A stretch of 35,987 nucleotides of DNA, from positions 1 to 35,987 of the IMG/VR virus record IMGVR_UViG_3300033518_000152, one strand, 5' to 3'. This DNA comes from a virus. Taxonomy: Duplodnaviria > Caudoviricetes. Positions within the stretch are counted from its first letter, which is position 1, and each line of letters starts with the position of its first letter. The notes under the pieces were generated by a model. It worked only from the letters and a program-made list of their open reading frames with translations, made no database searches and was not told where the DNA came from. Of this stretch, positions 4,838 to 30,259 are shown one piece after another. Made by a program: the position numbers and the translations under genes.

Positions 4838-5056
4838 TTATTTGTTTTCGGGATTAAATGCTTTATAATTAGCTAATGAATATTTTTGTACTTTTTTAGA
4901 CGCTTTTGATTCACCATCTAATATAGCTTGATGTGCTTCTTTTAATGTTAGATTAACGAATTTCAAATGTCTATTTAATTCTCCTGTTATCGGATACGGC
5001 TTATTAGACCACTCTTTCCCGTCTTCTGATATGTACATTCCTTGCACTTCCCTCAT
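4838..5056 (-). CDS. Hypothetical protein (72 aa)
   Basis: Co-oriented, tightly packed ORF. Confidence 0.65.
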   Translation of the reverse strand: MREVQGMYISEDGKEWSNKPYPITGELNRHLKFVNLTLKEAHQAILDGESKASKKVQKYSLANYKAFNPENK

Positions 5057-5101
5057 ATCCGAACCATCTCTTGTTTTTCCTGTATAGAAGGCATATCGTT
5101 T

Positions 5102-5710
5102 TTATTTATTAACCATGTATCCTCTTGAAATATAAATTTTTGGATACAATACTTTTAACATTTGTTTACATTCTACGCTAAAATCACAAATCAAGCAATT
5201 CTTACTTTTGTGATTATATAAATTCGTCATCATCTGACAATAAATAAATCCATTCTCTTCATTCAAAAACCTTTCTTTATTAGCTTCTTCGATCTGGTTG
5301 GTTTTTGTTATTAAGTCTGACCAATCTTCGGTTTTCTTTTCCGTATCTCGTAAATCGTGAAAGGTTTTTAAGTTCTTTCTAACTATAAAATTGAGGTGCT
5401 TCTTATTAGCCTTTTTCCAATGCTCTAAAGCAGTTTTGCCGATAATCCAATTAAGTTGTATGGACTTATTTTTATCAAAGTTTACACTGTGGGTGTAGAG
5501 CTGATTGAATTGAAAACTAAAATAGCTATCAACCGCCTTTTTCTGTAAAAGGTTTGTTTTGTTTAATTCTTTAAATTCTATTACGAACTTGTGAATCATT
5601 ACGGAGATAGCATCAGAGTTTTTGAATATGAAATTCTGCTTACCTGAAATTTTCTTGTAGAAAAAGGTAAATGTATCCACTATCATTCTAAGCTCTTTTT
5701 TATTCTCCAT
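5102..5710 (-). CDS. Hypothetical protein with C-terminal Cys cluster
   Basis: 202-aa ORF; YC...NCLICDFSVEC near the C-terminus suggests metal binding. Confidence 0.75.
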   Translation of the reverse strand: MENKKELRMIVDTFTFFYKKISGKQNFIFKNSDAISVMIHKFVIEFKELNKTNLLQKKAVDSYFSFQFNQLYTHSVNFDKNKSIQLNWIIGKTALEHWKKANKKHLNFIVRKNLKTFHDLRDTEKKTEDWSDLITKTNQIEEANKERFLNEENGFIYCQMMTNLYNHKSKNCLICDFSVECKQMLKVLYPKIYISRGYMVNK

Positions 5711-5849
5711 AAGTATGGTGCTTTATAAAATCAAAACTCGAGTAATCATCTCGATTAAAATCTTGTTTCTTAGTTTCTTCCAACGCTTCAATTAACTCTG
5801 TATTAAACTTTTGGAGATTTGCAATGCTTCAAAAGAAATATTTAGCTGC
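5700..5849 (-). pseudogene. Orphaned 3' half of the zinc-finger gene interrupted by the cassette (AAKYFF*SIANLQKFNTELIEALEETKKQDFNRDDYSSFDFIKHHTYGE*)
   Basis: Continues the frame of ORF 6237..6461 once the 444-bp insert is removed; contains one internal TGA; its TAA overlaps the start of the next gene. Confidence 0.6.
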
Positions 5850-6222
5850 TATGCCGTTGGACACCCTGCAACATATCAATCAACATTAACAATTGCCACA
5901 TTTTATCAATCTTGATTTCTTGAAATTCTGTTCCTTGAACTATCTCAACTGTTGTGCTTTGACATTTGTATGTATCAAGTGCTTCAACGAACTTGAAACT
6001 ATCAGTAATATGAATTTCAAGGTTACCGACAATTTTCTTTTTGTATGTGACAATTTTTAATGAGTAATATTCATCTGTTGCAAGGTCCTTATCATAATCA
6101 AATTTACATTCAAAGCCGTATTTATCTTCCAAATGAGTGGACACGATAGGCACAGCAGCTAACAAGGTATTGGCAAAATTGCCGTTTTCGGCTTTATTCG
6201 ATGTTGGTTTTGTACTTTCCAT
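5842..6222 (-). CDS. Cassette-borne hypothetical protein (126 aa)
   Basis: Start lies inside the attC-like element, so the N-terminal ENGNFANTLLAAVP is encoded by the attC arm; the stop TAA lies in the distal core site. Confidence 0.75.
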   Translation of the reverse strand: MESTKPTSNKAENGNFANTLLAAVPIVSTHLEDKYGFECKFDYDKDLATDEYYSLKIVTYKKKIVGNLEIHITDSFKFVEALDTYKCQSTTVEIVQGTEFQEIKIDKMWQLLMLIDMLQGVQRHSS

Positions 6223-6285
6223 TTTCTGTTTTTAATTTAAAGATTAGGTCTTATTTTATCGACAATAAGACAAAGCCGTATAACG
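5842..6285. mobile_element. Integron-type gene cassette (444 bp) inserted in the phage genome
   Basis: TTAGCTGC direct repeat at 5842-5849 and 6286-6293; the left end TTAGCTGCTATGCC is 13/14 complementary to the R''-like GGCACAGCAGCTAAC at 6149-6163, as expected for a circularisable cassette. Confidence 0.7.
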
Positions 6286-6293
6286 TTAGCTGC
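6155..6293 (+). repeat. attC-like recombination site (139 bp imperfect inverted repeat)
   Basis: GCAGCTAAC (6155-6163) and GTTAGCTGC (6285-6293) are perfect inverted core sites with the conserved AAC/GTT triplets; the inner arms (GGTATTGGCAAAATTGCCG and CGACAATAAGACAAAGCC) pair imperfectly; length is within the attC range. Confidence 0.72.
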
Positions 6294-6461
6294 CATGTCA
6301 CATTCATAACACTTTATTATCTTGAGCCTAATATTATATCTAAAACATCTGTTGGTTTTACCATCGTACTTACAAACGGGACAATAGCTTAAAATATAAA
6401 CATTCTTGTTTATTTTCGATTGCCTCAAATATGGATTCCAATGTCTTAAAATTTCTAACAT
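6237..6461 (-). CDS. Primase-type zinc-ribbon protein, C-terminally truncated by the cassette
   Basis: YCPVC...CFRYN...KCYECD; the final residues (NVIRLCLIVDKIRPNL) are read from the attC arm. Confidence 0.65.
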   Translation of the reverse strand: MLEILRHWNPYLRQSKINKNVYILSYCPVCKYDGKTNRCFRYNIRLKIIKCYECDMAANVIRLCLIVDKIRPNL

Positions 6462-7948
6462 TATTTGTTATTTTCTGATAGCCATTCAACGATTGATTCT
6501 TCTATTTCTATCCAATCTCCATCGTTATAAATTTCTATCCTGTTTTTACCTATCTGTTCATCGTATAGTTCTAAGCGTTCTAAACTATGTTTTGAAAAGT
6601 ACTTTGACCCAACATCTAAAATATCAATTACGATAGACCTTGTTTTAGTATCGGTTGCCCCTAAAACTCGCCCAAATTTTTGTTGAACGTTTATCTGCTC
6701 CAATCCGCCATCTGATATAACTACCAACTCGACTTCCGGAAGCGTGATTCCTTTCTTGTAAATGTTTGATGCTAATAAAATACCGCCTTTCTTTTCCAAG
6801 AATTTTACCTTTTGTTTTTCCCTTTCTTCAGTTTTATCATCACCAGAAATGAAAACGCAATTTGTTAATTCTGAAACGATGTTACCGTGAATTTTGGAAT
6901 TGAATAAAAACAGAGCCTTTATTTTATTTCTTTTGCATAATTTAACAATATTCACTAATATCATATTCCTTTTATTATTTTCGTGAATCGATAATCGTAA
7001 ATAATCGTGGTAGCTTGTCGCCCCAAGTTGACGCCCAATTTGATTTGATATCAGTATCGCCTTATCCATAGAAAGATATCCCTCTTTTTGTAAGGTTTTC
7101 TTTTCAACATTATATGCCACACCGCCAAAAAATCCTTTTACTTTAAGAGCTGAAAGAATATCATTGTTTCTAAACGGAGTTGCGGACAGCCCCATTAAAA
7201 ATTTAAGGTTTGTTGCTTTGTTATAAATGTTCAGCCTTTTCTGGCTTGAGGTATCTTGAACCTCGTCCACAATCAGCATTGTAAGTTTTCTCATCACTGA
7301 ATTGAGAGCCTTTAATTTTACAGCGTCTTTCTTTTTACCGAAATAAATCGAATTCAACGTTTGAACCATTGCGATTGTAACATTTTGGGGATTGAATTCT
7401 TTTGCGTTTATTTTACCTAATTCGTTTTCATCAATTTTCAGAAACTTAGCGAATTCTTTAATGGTTTGATTAAACAAATCAACACCATCCACAATAAACA
7501 TTACTTGGCATTCCGGGATTTGGTATTGTAAATTTTTTACGGCAGAAGTCGCTATAAATGTTTTTCCTCCACGAGTTGGTACAATAACTATTCCTACATT
7601 GTTTTTGAAAAATTTTCTAACCGCCTCAGATTGGTATTCTCTATCGTCTTCATCAAAGACTAATTGCTCTTGATTTATTGGTACTTTCTCGTATTCTATA
7701 TTGTAAACGCAATTTATATCGTTCTCTTTGAATGCTTGTCTTAATTCCTGAGTGAGCCCCAAGTCAAATTCGTTAGCTTTATCGTATAATCGTATAAAAC
7801 CGTCCCAATGTCCATTTCTGTATGCTGGATGAAAAATGGCGCCCTCACTCCAAATTCTCATTATGCTGTCTACGACTACTTGTTCTTCTTCTTCTTCTTC
7901 TATGAAAAACCGCCCTCTGTTGAGTGATATTCTCGTTATTGTTACCAT
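6461..7948 (-). CDS. SF2 DEAD/DEAH-like helicase (UvsW-like)
   Basis: REYQ Q-motif, PTRGGKT, IVDEVQ, GLSATP, KGITLP, QKFGRVL. Confidence 0.93.
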   Translation of the reverse strand: MVTITRISLNRGRFFIEEEEEEQVVVDSIMRIWSEGAIFHPAYRNGHWDGFIRLYDKANEFDLGLTQELRQAFKENDINCVYNIEYEKVPINQEQLVFDEDDREYQSEAVRKFFKNNVGIVIVPTRGGKTFIATSAVKNLQYQIPECQVMFIVDGVDLFNQTIKEFAKFLKIDENELGKINAKEFNPQNVTIAMVQTLNSIYFGKKKDAVKLKALNSVMRKLTMLIVDEVQDTSSQKRLNIYNKATNLKFLMGLSATPFRNNDILSALKVKGFFGGVAYNVEKKTLQKEGYLSMDKAILISNQIGRQLGATSYHDYLRLSIHENNKRNMILVNIVKLCKRNKIKALFLFNSKIHGNIVSELTNCVFISGDDKTEEREKQKVKFLEKKGGILLASNIYKKGITLPEVELVVISDGGLEQINVQQKFGRVLGATDTKTRSIVIDILDVGSKYFSKHSLERLELYDEQIGKNRIEIYNDGDWIEIEESIVEWLSENNK

Positions 7949-7964
7949 TTCCGTATTTTTCCCG

Positions 7965-7972
7965 CAAAGTTA
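7965..7972 (-). promoter_or_regulatory. Bacteroidota sigmaA -7 element (TAACTTTG) upstream of the helicase operon
   Basis: Exact TAnnTTTG match, 16 nt upstream of the helicase ATG; no clear -33 TTTG. Confidence 0.6.
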
Positions 7973-8350
7973 ATTATTTTAGTCTAAACCTTGTACTTGG
8001 TCAATGTCTCTCGCATAAAACAGGAAATCTAAAATTCTTATTTCAGAAGGAGAAAGGTAAAGAAGAAGAGATGAGCTCTTGCCCCCCTTTCCCCCTTATT
8101 GGTAGAACCCAATAGAAGTACTCAACAGCTAAAAGCTCAAAACCTCAAATTCCAAATATTCATCGGATTTTAGGTGACACGTGCACAATTTAATTAGCTT
8201 ACCCCCATTATCCCAGTCGAGTGCGGTCGTGTTCTTATAATGAAGTCGTGGTTCCTTTTTGGCAAATGTGCCTTAGTATTGCAGGACTGAATAGTAAACC
8301 TTGAGGAAAGAAAAACTTTTTTACAAGGTTTTTTGAATTAAAATTGCACT

Positions 8351-8677
8351 ATGACAACTTATAACACATCAGTAGTAACTATAACTGTAAACCAATTAGG
8401 AAGAACTTCTTTTGCTCTTAACATCTTAGGGAGAGACAATGAGAGACTTTTTGCCGAACTTTTAGAAGACACAACTTGCAATACTGCCGCTTTTATCGGT
8501 ATATGTAGAGCGAGCAACGAATTCCCCGATAAAATAATATTGACCGACAATGCGGTTGCCGCCACTTGGGCCAAGGGAGCACCTTTGAATACTAAATTGC
8601 CGAACAAAATTGCTGAAAATTATTCTCGATTAATTCAAGCAAAAGCGATTCATCCTAATGTCACTTGTACATCGTAA
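8351..8677 (+). CDS. RNase H-like fold protein, probably catalytically inactive
   Basis: DTTCNTAAFIGICRA...IILTDNAVAATWAK...NTKL parallels the RNase HI pattern TNNxxEFxA...IYSDSxxAxxW...KTKL; the only convincing plus-strand gene. Confidence 0.55.
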   Translation: MTTYNTSVVTITVNQLGRTSFALNILGRDNERLFAELLEDTTCNTAAFIGICRASNEFPDKIILTDNAVAATWAKGAPLNTKLPNKIAENYSRLIQAKAIHPNVTCTS

Positions 8678-8766
8678 ATTTGCCCTCTATTTATTGAAAA
8701 TTTACGAAACCACATACTTATACCGAAAATAGTATAGAACCACGGATTCACATTTGGTTTTAAACG

Positions 8767-8799
8767 AAAAAGGCACTAGAAAGTTATTTCTAATGCCCC
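8767..8799 (-). terminator. Intrinsic terminator ending the structural operon
   Basis: Minus strand GGCATTAGAAA-TAAC-TTTCTAGTGCC-TTTTT about 20 nt after the stop of 8820..9644. Confidence 0.8.
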
Positions 8800-8819
8800 T
8801 AACGAGTTTAAAATTGGTC

Positions 8820-9644
8820 TTAGTCTAATTCAAAAATTATTTTAAAATCTTCTTTTGTGTTATGTTGAGCCTTGATTTCTTCTAAGGTCAAACATTCGTC
8901 ATCTTGTATTTTATAGTTCGAGTTTATTCTTCTTCTAATCCAAAGTCCTATAGAACCTCCTGCTACTATTTCGTCAGCTATTAGAGTTTTGTCGAGTAAA
9001 CCGCCTGATAAATTTACATTTGTAGCAAGTGCACTTCCTGAAGTAGAAAAATTAGAACTTACTCCCGTTATTCCAAAAACGGAATTTTGTATGTAAACCG
9101 TATTATCATCAATCTTCGACGCAGAAAACAAGCCTGAATCATTCAGTGCTTCAATTAAGTCGGCTTGGAAAGTGGCTAAACTATCTCCCGTCAAAGTTCC
9201 GTTTATTCCAAAGATGGAAAACGTATCTCCAATCGTTCCAGATTGAGTTAATGTTAAACGACAATCTTCTAATCGGGATTCGCTATTAAACCACTCAGCG
9301 TAAAATGGCTCTTCATATATGCTTCCTATTGCTTCTATTGAGCCATTTGGAGCGACTTCTACTACCGCAAAATCAAAATCCGCAAAATTTGTATATGCGC
9401 CTTGAAATCTTTCGTAAACTTCTTGTATGGTTAAATTTGTTATAAGATTAGTAGTTTCATTCTGTATGAAAAGTGCTAAGCAATTATTAACTTTATTTTG
9501 TAAATCATAAAGGGATACATCAGAAAAAATCGCATTCAACTTTGAGTTAGGAACAGGTGTACCTGACATAAATCCTCCCAAAGAAAGATTCGCTTCTTTT
9601 TGTTCTGTTCCTAAGTATTTCGCTCCTGAAAATAATAATCTCAT
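8820..9644 (-). CDS. Putative virion/baseplate-associated protein
   Basis: Last gene of the tail operon; beta-rich; SLGGFMSGT N-terminus and GLWIRR C-terminal motif. Confidence 0.6.
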   Translation of the reverse strand: MRLLFSGAKYLGTEQKEANLSLGGFMSGTPVPNSKLNAIFSDVSLYDLQNKVNNCLALFIQNETTNLITNLTIQEVYERFQGAYTNFADFDFAVVEVAPNGSIEAIGSIYEEPFYAEWFNSESRLEDCRLTLTQSGTIGDTFSIFGINGTLTGDSLATFQADLIEALNDSGLFSASKIDDNTVYIQNSVFGITGVSSNFSTSGSALATNVNLSGGLLDKTLIADEIVAGGSIGLWIRRRINSNYKIQDDECLTLEEIKAQHNTKEDFKIIFELD

Positions 9645-24209: not shown

Positions 24210-24695
24210 TTAAACCGGAAATAGAATAGGAGTAATGTACTCAAAATCCACATCTCGACCAGAAATCTGCCCCTCTGAGATATCAAAACTTTCTTTCGTA
24301 GCGAACGCACCCCTAACACTTGCAAACAGCTCGAATTTAGGATAAATGATTCCGGTCGCTGGGTCTTGATAATCTTTGACTTTCTTCATGATGTCGATTT
24401 GAATACCGTTTTCCTGAAGAAGAACTGTATCCACAAAATTTTGAAGATTATTAACATTTCTCAAGAGAGCATTTTTAATCAAAGCGTCTTGATTGTTAAA
24501 CGTTATGCTATAAAATCCGGCATTCAAAGTTCCATCCCATTTTAAGGCAGGAAGTTCTTGCGGTGTCAACTCCCCAATACCTTGAACGTTTCCACGTTGT
24601 ATTGACTCGTTCACTCGGATATTTTTCATTTTTCCGATTGCTATGCCGTTCACTTTGATTACAGCGAGGGGAGCAGTCATGGTTTTAGTTGCCAT
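24210..24695 (-). CDS. Tail tube protein
   Basis: 161 aa directly after the sheath; IKVNGIAIG...VQGIGELTPQE...FEY pattern of Twort-like tubes. Confidence 0.85.
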   Translation of the reverse strand: MATKTMTAPLAVIKVNGIAIGKMKNIRVNESIQRGNVQGIGELTPQELPALKWDGTLNAGFYSITFNNQDALIKNALLRNVNNLQNFVDTVLLQENGIQIDIMKKVKDYQDPATGIIYPKFELFASVRGAFATKESFDISEGQISGRDVDFEYITPILFPV

Positions 24696-26952: not shown

Positions 26953-27624
26953 TTATGGCGATTCTGCTTTTCCCGTAATCACAAATTCTTTAATCAACTT
27001 GGTAAAGAAAAAATTAGGCACATTTAATTCGTATGAAAAATTCAATAAAACGCTTCTATGAAATATATGAGTCGGTATTTTAGACGAATCTAAATTCACG
27101 TCTTGACCGCTAATTTTTGGCAAACGTAATCCCGATAATTCTAAGTGATAATTCAAGGCCAATAAGGATGATTTTAATAAATTGTAAATCAAAAGAAGCT
27201 CAAAGCTATTTTCGGAACTTATCAATAAATTATAGGTTGAATCATATTTCTGAGTAAACACTGCTCTGTAAGAAGTGGCGTCAACATTCTCATCATATGG
27301 TTGATAATTTTCATCAGCCCCAATACCTAATGGACTTCCATTTTCAGCGGGAAGAAGAATATGAACACAACCCATAGAAGCTACTTCTAAATTGTATCCC
27401 AAATTAACTTGAGGAGTCTTTCTAACAAAGGTCTCTATCGCCTGATTCAAATAATCAAAACTTTCAAATGCTATTCTATCGCCATTCTCATCTACGCCAA
27501 ATAAGCTGTAAAGCATTGTGTCTTCTAATGTATTACTATCATAATCATCTTTAACTAATTTGAAGACTGTCTTCAAAGTTTTGTAGATAATTACTTCGGG
27601 AATTATAATTGCTTCAGTTGCCAT
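26953..27624 (-). CDS. Putative tail completion/terminator protein
   Basis: Last neck gene before the sheath, as in Twort-like gene order. Confidence 0.6.
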   Translation of the reverse strand: MATEAIIIPEVIIYKTLKTVFKLVKDDYDSNTLEDTMLYSLFGVDENGDRIAFESFDYLNQAIETFVRKTPQVNLGYNLEVASMGCVHILLPAENGSPLGIGADENYQPYDENVDATSYRAVFTQKYDSTYNLLISSENSFELLLIYNLLKSSLLALNYHLELSGLRLPKISGQDVNLDSSKIPTHIFHRSVLLNFSYELNVPNFFFTKLIKEFVITGKAESP

Positions 27625-28408
27625 AGCCTAAATCATTTAAAATTTTATCCACGTTGTTCTCGCTAATCATTTCAATATCGGTATCAGCCAAAGCCTTGCC
27701 CATAAAATCCTTAGCTTGAATTCCTCTATGTATCCACGAATTAGGGTCAGAATTTTCACTAACTCTTCTAAAAGTTACATAAGTATTTTGAGCCACCTTT
27801 TCGTATGCTCCTGTTTTCTTAGCCAACCCCTCATAAATACTATGCTTATGCTGATACTCCGGAATTACTCTGGTAGGTAGAACAATAGCCTTTCTTGAGC
27901 TTGGGATATCAAAAGGACTTGGAATGTCCGTTTTCTTTAGTCCTACATCAGATGGCATTTTACTAACCAAACCGTAAATCTCGCTCGGCATTATGGAAGT
28001 GAAAGCAGAATTTTCCCCTACTATTCCGGGAGTTCCTATCCTGAAAGGAATCGTAAGATACCAACTCGCTATAAGATTCCCATTTTTATCGGTCTTGTAA
28101 GAATATTTCACCTTTGGGGAATTAGCGAATCCTGTTTTCATATCAAAAGCCGAACAGCCTTGTTCTAGCATGTTTGGTAGTTTCCCCGTCAATAAAATAG
28201 TTTTCGAGTAATCACCATTATTGATAATTTGAAGATTATTAATGTATTCATTTCTCGTAGAACCCAAGCCTTTTGAGGCTGCGAGTTGCCAGTTTCTATA
28301 AATCTCATCGGTAACTTTAGTCACAGTGTCTTTTACCATGAAATCCCCTATGTTAGTAGGTAGATTAAACTCGGCAATGATATCATCTATGTTAAGGTCG
28401 ATTGTCAT
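27614..28408 (-). CDS. Putative neck protein
   Basis: AFDMKTGF...WYLTIPFR...YVTFRRVSENSDPNSWIH resembles the Twort/SPO1-like neck protein. Confidence 0.75.
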   Translation of the reverse strand: MTIDLNIDDIIAEFNLPTNIGDFMVKDTVTKVTDEIYRNWQLAASKGLGSTRNEYINNLQIINNGDYSKTILLTGKLPNMLEQGCSAFDMKTGFANSPKVKYSYKTDKNGNLIASWYLTIPFRIGTPGIVGENSAFTSIMPSEIYGLVSKMPSDVGLKKTDIPSPFDIPSSRKAIVLPTRVIPEYQHKHSIYEGLAKKTGAYEKVAQNTYVTFRRVSENSDPNSWIHRGIQAKDFMGKALADTDIEMISENNVDKILNDLGYGN

Positions 28409-29097
28409 TATGATGCTTCTTTAAGTTCTCTTTTTAATCTCCAAGTTTCTTTGGCTTTTTCTTTTGCTTCTTGACTCATTTTCTTACCAAAATTAGGATT
28501 ATTATTACCTCTATAATTTTCTTTAAATTCTTCTGTTCTAGTTTTACCGAAGTTAGATGAACTGATTTTAATCTTTGTTTCTTCTCTACAAATTTTACCA
28601 GTGTTTGATTTGCTTATTTTAGCTCTGGTTTCTGGAGAATTAATATTTCCAATGTGAGCTTTTGAAATATTCAACTTAGTCTGTTCGCTTCTAATTTTTC
28701 CTGTATTGGCAATTCTTAATTTTTCTTTTGTTTCTTTGCTGAGTGTTCTACCTAAATTCAATTTACTCAATTTAATTCTAGATTCTTTAGACCACTTAGC
28801 TCCGATAGAACCATCTCCACCATTAGTCATATTAACTAATTTCCCTAATCCTAAATCTTTTCTTCCGTATTTCTTTATTAAATGAATTTCTAGCTTACAA
28901 GCTACTTTCCAAGATAAATTCTCAGCGACTATTTTGACGGTGTATCCGTATTTATTTACAATATTATTCCAATACGGATTTCTACCGGAATCGTAAGGTC
29001 TATTCTTGATTCCTATCCCAATATAAAAAATTTCATTCGTATCATTTCTAAGATGCAAATAAACTTTAACGTTTCCGTCCTTTTTTAGCTGTCTCAT
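28408..29097 (-). CDS. GIY-YIG-type homing endonuclease with NUMOD3 repeats
   Basis: VYLH...FYIGIG..R...E..LI...LVNMTNGGDG, followed by tandem SxETKxKIS repeats. Confidence 0.88.
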   Translation of the reverse strand: MRQLKKDGNVKVYLHLRNDTNEIFYIGIGIKNRPYDSGRNPYWNNIVNKYGYTVKIVAENLSWKVACKLEIHLIKKYGRKDLGLGKLVNMTNGGDGSIGAKWSKESRIKLSKLNLGRTLSKETKEKLRIANTGKIRSEQTKLNISKAHIGNINSPETRAKISKSNTGKICREETKIKISSSNFGKTRTEEFKENYRGNNNPNFGKKMSQEAKEKAKETWRLKRELKEAS

Positions 29098-30082
29098 TTT
29101 TTAATTTTGGATTAATCTTTCTTCTTCAGAATATTTATCGTTATCAAATAAATATTGAGCTTTTCTAGCAATTCCATTTATAGGCATATCTTTAAGTTCT
29201 TCGCCCACTTGCAAGCAATCTTCTTTTGTTCTAACTTTTAGAATATCTCTATTCATCTCAATTATATGATAAACCATTAAATGCTTGTATCGTATTGTTA
29301 AAACCGACTCTGGATTAGTTGCGCGTCCTCCGCTCAACATTTCAATTTTGGATTCTTCTAGAACTTCGTAGTCTGTTCCCTCTTCCAAAACCACTAATGG
29401 TAATTTATCTGAACTGAACATGTAGATTTTTTCAATCTCCACTATTGGATATTCTACAAATGCAACGATTTTATTACTCAACAGACGTGTTCTTATTATT
29501 TCATTATAGAATCCTTCAACTTCTCTGAGAATTATCCTATCCATGAAACCTAACTTATCAGAAGCTCTGGCAGTTACTCTGGCTGTCCCGGAAGTATTTT
29601 TGGTCCAATTTTCATATTTAGTATCTACTTTTATGGATTGTATAGCTATTCTTGTTTCTGCTCTAGAAGCAAAAATCCACCCAACTCCCAAGCAGTTGTT
29701 ACAACTAACCAACGGTTGTCCAGAACCTTTTACAGCACAAGGACAGCGATAGGCTTTATCCAAATAAACCTCATACCCTTTATCAAAAACAAGAGCATCA
29801 AATCTTTGCGGTTCAAAGCGAACTTGATGACCTACATTTTCGGCAGGTGTTTTGGTTACGGTCGCTCTTTTTGTAAAATTTTCAGACATTCGTTAAAACT
29901 TTAGAATTAGTATTTCTTTTTCTAGTCTCTAATCTTTTAAGTATTGTCTCGGGCGACGTTTTCTTTCCTTTATTCCAAGAAGTACCTCCTAAATTTCCTC
30001 TGTTCCCTAATCCTAAATCTTTTCTTCCGTATTTCTTTATTAAATGAATTTCTAGCTTACAAGCTGCTTTCCAAGATAAATT
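28841..30082. repeat. Direct repeat pair (28841-28920 and 30003-30082; 80 bp with one mismatch) shared by the two endonuclease genes
   Basis: Aligned by eye: 63 identical nt, one A/G mismatch, 16 identical nt; looser similarity continues to the 5' ends of both genes. Confidence 0.9.
29101..29889 (-). CDS. Putative head closure/neck protein with Cys motif
   Basis: AYRCPC...SCNNCLGVGWIF...LGFMDRI is typical of Twort-like head completion proteins. Confidence 0.75.
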   Translation of the reverse strand: MSENFTKRATVTKTPAENVGHQVRFEPQRFDALVFDKGYEVYLDKAYRCPCAVKGSGQPLVSCNNCLGVGWIFASRAETRIAIQSIKVDTKYENWTKNTSGTARVTARASDKLGFMDRIILREVEGFYNEIIRTRLLSNKIVAFVEYPIVEIEKIYMFSSDKLPLVVLEEGTDYEVLEESKIEMLSGGRATNPESVLTIRYKHLMVYHIIEMNRDILKVRTKEDCLQVGEELKDMPINGIARKAQYLFDNDKYSEEERLIQN

Positions 30083-30259
30083 TTTAGCAACTATTTTTAC
30101 GGTGTATCCCGATAGTCGGGCAGTATTTTTCCAATATGAACTTCTACCATTTTCAACGAACGGTCTATTTTCTATTCCTATTCCGATATAAAAAATTTCA
30201 TTCGTATCGTTTCTAAGATGCAAGTAAACTTTGACATCTTTTCTTTCTTTATTATCCAT
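29882..30259 (-). CDS. Truncated GIY-YIG homing endonuclease paralogue
   Basis: Closely similar to 28408..29097 up to GRKDLGLG, then lacks the NxTxGGDG motif and most NUMOD3 repeats. Confidence 0.8.
   Translation of the reverse strand: MDNKERKDVKVYLHLRNDTNEIFYIGIGIENRPFVENGRSSYWKNTARLSGYTVKIVAKNLSWKAACKLEIHLIKKYGRKDLGLGNRGNLGGTSWNKGKKTSPETILKRLETRKRNTNSKVLTNV

Follow-up and report, generated by a model that had tools for sequence, protein, structure and literature searches.

Phage-borne clusters of attC sites and lone integron cassettes have both been published already (Qi et al. 2023, PMC9892861; 10.1101/2022.09.11.507474), and the locus described here was compared with these accounts and with the classical integron (Bouvier 2009, PMC2727003), in each case within the portions of the source that bear on the point in question. 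CALINs in virulent phages, as described by Qi et al., resemble it in being attC-like phage sites without intI, and off-target homologous or illegitimate recombination is raised there as a possible route of entry. SALIN cassettes at attG sites (10.1101/2022.09.11.507474) resemble it in being lone, in having one hairpin site and no nearby integrase and in interrupting a gene; the present unit differs in its left junction (TTT, not GWT), in the 8-bp identity of target and cassette end, in its inverted gene, in its non-canonical site and in its location in a phage. With the classical integron as set out by Bouvier (PMC2727003), the phage family treated here has in common the AAC and GTT core boxes, a covarying stem, the G after AAC, the G^TT unit boundary (seen in relatives of the unit) and, in four phage records, a non-hairpin terminal site beside a tyrosine recombinase, whereas it differs in carrying its gene on the bottom strand behind a hairpin that contains the predicted start, in an arm offset of 3–4 bases without a single extrahelical R''-L'' base, and in a neighbouring phage recombinase without the IntI insertion. 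Hairpins of the same family, 72–78% identical to the one analysed, occur in Flavobacterium phages 11b (AJ842011) and vB_FspS_snusmum6-1 (MN812234), in the same inverted layout and with leaders read through the hairpin; these phages differ in having several intact sites in rows, against one damaged site here, and their cassettes are not annotated as such in the records. The unit described below functions as an integron cassette would and has the appearance of a SALIN, but lacks several of the features that mark membership among attC sites. No description of the inverted class, of starts within sites or of the simpler recombinase was found in the open literature (subscription journals, bioRxiv supplements and the Dryad files of Qi 2023 excepted).

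The window, that is, the whole stretch of DNA that was analysed, has 35,987 bases and represents an entire virus record estimated to be 36% complete. Genes for capsid, baseplate, helicase, DnaB and primase are encoded in it, and its gene order is syntenic with that of Chryseobacterium phage MA9V-3 and Bacteroides phage SJC03, which makes a Bacteroidota host likely; a close relative of the window phage was not found. In both syntenic phages the orthologue of 8820–9644 is followed directly by the orthologue of 5102–5710, and the block 5710–8820, being absent between them, was classified as accessory. This block holds a helicase, a zinc-ribbon gene fragment, the cassette and a 108-aa ORF on the plus strand (8351–8677) without family match. 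Promoter scanning gave chance-level results. Read-through of TGA in the window phage was considered and ruled out, as TGA terminates 6 of 33 long ORFs.

The cassette unit (5842–6285, 444 bp) consists of a left repeat, an inverted gene and a hairpin up to the G of a G^TT. The sequence elements listed in the initial annotation were recovered: a 139-bp inverted repeat ending in GCAGCTAAC at 6155–6163 and GTTAGCTGC at 6285–6293; the 8-mer TTAGCTGC, which the plus strand carries in just two places, 5842 and 6286, separated by 444 bp, and the complement of which is present once in the window, at 6155; pairing of 13 of 14 bases between the 5842 end and 6149–6162; and a 126-aa ORF running on the minus strand from 6222 to 5842, beginning in the hairpin loop and ending in the TAA that the left repeat contains. 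When the circle junction was built from the window in silico, it folded better than the integrated form (-23.5/-24.5 kcal/mol for 160 nt versus -18.5/-19.8 kcal/mol for 159 nt). Two points were added that the initial annotation did not contain, namely that the base preceding 5842 is T, not G, and that, within the hairpin, neither inner arm pairs with the other. The left repeat (5842–5849, plus strand) contains the TAA stop of the cargo gene on the minus strand, and the first ~17 codons of the cargo ORF, counted from its predicted start, lie in the hairpin.

The gene travels as a unit. Homologous DNA (90–93% identity) was found in five IMG/VR contigs representing three contexts, and every alignment ends at 5842. 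Of eight sequencing runs compared, X1, X2, X6, X7 and X14 contain 5842–6188 and X3 contains 5890–6188; in X6, X7 and X14 three different hairpins are joined at 5842, each with CG before TTAG and hence with G^TT. Judged by these shared ends, the natural boundary of the unit is G^TT at 5842, and the proposal that 5842–6285 is a real mobile cassette was borne out by the contigs and runs alike. For the cassette class as a whole, the survey of related sites makes this very probable.

Which hairpin belongs to the gene was assessed from copies in different surroundings. L001/L002 and L005 share the same 5' hairpin and have different upstream genes and different 3' hairpins, and in L003/L004 only part of the same 5' hairpin is retained. 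(In L003/L004, after the cargo copy, three hairpin-like sites follow in a row at 5360–5600 with almost no gene between them.) In addition to L001/L002 versus L005, three same-gene pairs were present among 145 units; in all three the 5' hairpin is common to both members and neither flank is, compared with 5/300 random pairs. The gene therefore travels with the hairpin that contains its predicted start, as had been suggested, because the 5' hairpin is kept while the flanks change. These data bear directly on a conventional reading, in which the minus strand shows a canonical cassette: the upstream gene would own the hairpin, and a downstream attC would have been lost from the cargo; the palindrome permits this, and homologues of the cargo have several different leaders, but the 5' hairpin moves with the gene while the 3' hairpin varies, the minus strand has bottom-strand polarity, and bacterial genes at such sites face the other way in 8/8 cases, so that this reading is hardly credible.

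The same polarity was then scored across sites. Among 169 viral hairpins, an ORF was found on the same (bottom) strand in 132 and on the opposite strand in 11, with none or an unclear one in 26; the count covers loci L020–L099, 80 of the 129 fetched, the rest having short flanks. At bacterial hairpins (12 loci from 151 genomes) the gene was on the other strand in 8/8 that could be scored, and a Myroides plasmid agrees in polarity with the bacterial loci. The cargo gene of the window likewise has bottom-strand orientation and follows its own site, whereas in attC cassettes the gene is on the top strand and upstream of the site. The motif TAACG...TGTTA on the gene strand (hairpin region 6155–6293, minus strand) is oriented like the bottom strands that Qi 2023 (PMC9892861) lists in Table S3, and the G after AAC on the bottom strand has the same polarity in the sites given by Bouvier 2009 (PMC2727003). 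On these counts the inversion of the gene relative to bacterial cassettes is real and phage-typical, and the annotated layout proves to be a phage-wide pattern in the viral hairpin survey. An ATG lies inside the hairpin in 54/79 long same-strand viral hairpins, and a translation start within the hairpin is likely from gene prediction; the A-rich stretch before the predicted start of the cargo presumably fits initiation in Bacteroidota.

The hairpin of the window copy was examined by folding and by a covariance model (R1) built from 51 other sites. The minus-strand fold has a z of -3.09, with 0/200 shuffles as good, and the model matches 6157–6291 with 61.4 bits and E 3.6e-11. This was the sole significant match in the window, so that a single site without a recombinase nearby is present in 36 kb; a second hairpin candidate at 24452–24505 scored at chance level, and no Rfam family reached the gathering level for the window hairpin. 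Its core boxes are inverted, with AAC and GTT triplets at 6155–6163 and 6285–6293, and match 6/7 to the RYYYAAC/GTTRRRY consensus. The initial annotation had treated this as an intact attC, a view that was not supported in this form. The same gene carries in L001 and L005 one long continuous stem with an arm score of 32 and model scores of 89–90 bits, whereas the window hairpin has an arm score of 12 and 61 bits, lacks the continuous stem joining the inner (L) arms, and adopts a branched fold with 4/17 model pairs broken. The arm at 6155–6188 (minus strand) is that of the gene's own family (L001, L005, runs X1–X3, X6, X7 and X14); from 6188 rightwards the window departs from the gene's usual hairpin, and loop and far arm (6182–6289, minus strand) match the family of 11b and snusmum6-1, with the switch point in shared bases at ~6182–6188. 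The window hairpin is, by this alignment, a chimera of two families, and would no longer excise well; the window copy is likely to be immobile now.

A chimeric element in a sparsely covered phage could also be produced by the assembler, if a low-depth phage contig had been routed through abundant cassette or hairpin repeats of the same sample. Depths would allow this (17–20 for the cassette contigs of X1 and X2, ~3 for the phage flanks). The window copy, however, differs from the abundant copy at 10 positions, and run contigs reach both ends: an X2 contig covers the right junction (6260–6571, 26 letters left of the G) without differences, and outside the window the left junction is seen in a single X3 contig that passes the repeat by one base, the same base as in the window. 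An assembly artefact is accordingly very unlikely.

The right end of the unit cuts into a zinc-ribbon gene on the minus strand (6237–6461). The ORF upstream of the cassette encodes the first 58–59 residues of a zinc-ribbon protein with relatives in MaF61 (ORF51), P0031 and L015, and then continues into hairpin sequence, ending at 74 aa. The right 8-bp repeat (6286–6293, plus strand, preceded by G) lies within the zinc-ribbon coding sequence and corresponds on the minus strand to codons 57–59; from these alignments, the gene is truncated by the cassette. Zinc-ribbon homologues (n=26, repeat protein P0042 excluded) have 89–164 aa and all end in xPF. Removal of the 444 bp in silico gave a zinc-ribbon frame that stops after 63 residues. 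The downstream flank (5700–5841, minus strand) contains what resembles the remains of an ORF, with a stop that overlaps the 202-aa gene at its start. Its assignment as the C-terminal half of the zinc-ribbon protein was dropped as unproven, since homology to zinc-ribbon C-terminal halves was insignificant (best P 0.01 of 78 comparisons) and the xPF end was absent, and the two flanks may not be halves of one gene. At 5809–5812 the T run of the window is one base longer than in a contig from run X4, which shifts the frame of the downstream remnant. The zinc-ribbon gene is also found in unrelated contexts (L015 3973–4420, L008 2989–3345); the L015 copy lies between the two copies of a 14-bp direct repeat, so that the gene may itself be mobile.

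Clean integration by IntI at G^TT, as assumed in the initial annotation, was not supported at the left end. The right junction of the window unit is G^TT and the left one T^TT, against G^TT in 150/151 surveyed units; the terminal TAA is followed by C in 150/151 units, including 56/57 without a detected following hairpin. Matched outer core bases were found in only 3/230 hairpins, where ~2% would be expected, and the 8-bp repeat of the window copy belongs to this rare class. The breach of the junction rule together with the rare matched core points to an entry helped by the 8-bp match. A lone copy from a phage pool of inverted integron-like cassettes, entered by a crossover in that match, is accordingly the reading to which about even chances are given.

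Run X4 provides a further allele of the left flank: one contig (depth 4.5, ~97% identical to the flank) shares the flank and the 8-mer with the window and continues with 18 different letters, which belong either to a different cassette occupying this site or to a different resident gene. The X4 contig likewise lacks the G, and this is a difficulty for an alternative in which a recombinase inserted the unit in the ordinary way at a secondary G^TT site, as in SALIN/attG, the left G was lost afterwards and the 8-bp match is coincidental. The right junction, G^TT, is as this alternative predicts; one extra base at the left would align a downstream frame that resembles, by eye, the N-I-x-x-L-x-H of the homologues, and gene-disrupting IntI insertion at GWT sites is documented in the cited portion of 10.1101/2022.09.11.507474. 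It requires a 2% coincidence and a deletion, and the downstream homology it would explain is not significant; it was considered unlikely, though not negligible. Distinctly unlikely, in turn, is import of the zinc-ribbon fragment, hairpin and gene as one block from another phage, joined to the flank at the 8-bp match, which would imply an illegitimate left junction and flanks from different genes. The downstream flank without xPF end agrees with such an import, as do the different sequence that X4 has next to this flank, with an in-frame TAA at its end, the absence of the whole block 5710–8820 between orthologues in MA9V-3 and SJC03, and the truncated hairpin accompanying the gene in L003/L004; the 8-bp match at the right junction would still be a 2% coincidence, and a search for the donor block found none.

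Empty alleles were sought by several routes. The joint 5841–6286 was absent from the 8 sequencing runs, the exact pattern of the empty junction gave 0 matches, a search of viral contigs with the flank proteins returned nothing, and alignment of the zinc-ribbon protein against metagenome contigs yielded a single relative, whose context was unrelated, and a match of 13 residues.

The enzyme was approached through site geometry and through genes beside arrays. The arms of the phage sites are offset by 4 bases in 126/175 and by 3 bases in 41/175, a family offset unlike that of canonical sites, which is about 0, judged by eye, in Table S3 of Qi 2023 (PMC9892861); this is a second respect in which the window site departs from an intact attC. 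In alignment A4 no single extrahelical base was seen on the R''-L'' arm, and stem covariation was 0.688 versus 0.157 for shuffled sequences, in a set of sites pre-selected for arm pairing. The published site P12002L_attC1 of Polaribacter phage P12002L (L149, ~29,990–30,040) has the same arm offset as the phage hairpin family and sits between two methyltransferase genes on its own bottom strand, and of six sites assayed in PMC9892861 it is the one that was not integrated by IntI1. The portion of PMC9892861 on the P12002L sites calls them only 'divergent', and describes there no systematic inversion, in-site starts or other recombinase.

Among 41 phage records with such sites, PF00589 was matched in 5 and 36 had no match. 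Four recombinases of 267–294 aa begin 40–52 bases after the terminal TAAC of an array (L162 1210–2079, L163 1405–2286, L164 1198–2082 and L165 1180–1983; in L163 the hairpin of the last unit went undetected by the scan). Against TIGR02249 they score 133–157 bits (cut-off 265), aligning to profile positions ~1–179 and 239–314 and skipping ~180–238, which amounts to absence of the IntI insertion. In bacterial genome G020 a homologue immediately precedes a canonical array; close homologues (E 1e-40) were absent in 3 of 5 bacterial array genomes tested. The short non-hairpin stretch between the terminal TAAC and the recombinase is a candidate attI-like site. The recombinases in L162–L165 are directed away from the array, the bacterial homologue in L167 towards it. 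With insertion-less recombinases beside arrays and a published site of this type that failed with IntI1, IntI, named in the initial annotation, is probably not the enzyme that moves these cassettes, and the position of the four genes suggests a tyrosine recombinase without the insertion instead. The statement that the window has no integrase stood insofar as no PF00589 match was found in it, and is limited by a record that is only 36% complete.

Under the preferred reading, entry by crossover in the 8-bp match, the unit would normally move as a circle, and a tyrosine recombinase without the IntI insertion would cut its folded bottom strand at AA^C; the host, another phage or the unsequenced part of the window genome would supply this enzyme. 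Hairpin and A-rich loop would supply the translation start, so that any phage operon running in the same direction could read the cassette. In the present case GCAGCTAA in the zinc-ribbon gene would have provided the homology that helped the circle to enter, by one crossover within the 8-bp match to the cassette's own core box, and the unit would have settled alone in the accessory block; a further exchange at shared bases ~6182–6188 would have replaced most of the hairpin, and the entry and the exchange could have occurred in either order.

More broadly, it is tentatively proposed, at slightly less than even chances, that an integron-like system other than IntI/attC is common to Bacteroidota and their phages, with asymmetric hairpins devoid of the usual extrahelical bases, an insertion-less recombinase and a phage pool of inverted, start-carrying cassettes, in which phages without arrays are colonized through 8-bp core-box matches and one site takes different cassettes according to strain. 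If true, single genes carrying their own recombination site and translation start would constitute a route to phage mosaicism, with genes exchanged among unrelated phages by an enzyme borrowed from the host, and single-strand hairpin recombination would proceed without the IntI insertion or canonical attC geometry. Such sites may escape current integron detectors, and the cultured phages 11b, snusmum6-1 and P12002L make the system testable. The window locus itself would be an added case of escape from arrays, as a damaged copy with an unsettled route of entry.

The cargo protein was analysed separately. It had no match in PHROG, NCBIfam or Pfam, Atlas matches of at most 0.85 and no Foldseek match at E 0.001; the best VIA match (Z 7.0, rmsd 2.9, 80 aligned) was inside the background range. 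In the predicted structure (pLDDT 77.5) short helices accompany a mixed beta-sheet, and residues 1–16, encoded by the hairpin, are disordered (pLDDT under 50). Of 33 candidates 29 were homologues, 11 of which begin with one leader type; the others have different leaders or are fusions. Genome contigs contained only one distant homologue, without hairpin match, and two weak matches. DNA methyltransferases are carried by many neighbouring cassettes, from which a role of the cargo in host interaction is guessed, with low odds.

Two further features of the window were recorded. Positions 4838–5098 comprise 259 bases with a 72-aa ORF (5056 to 4838) that are absent from a contig of run X4; no hairpin was seen there, and the difference is a second insertion or deletion. 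Two homing-endonuclease-like ORFs (28408–29097 and 29882–30259) lie amid structural genes (27614–30259).
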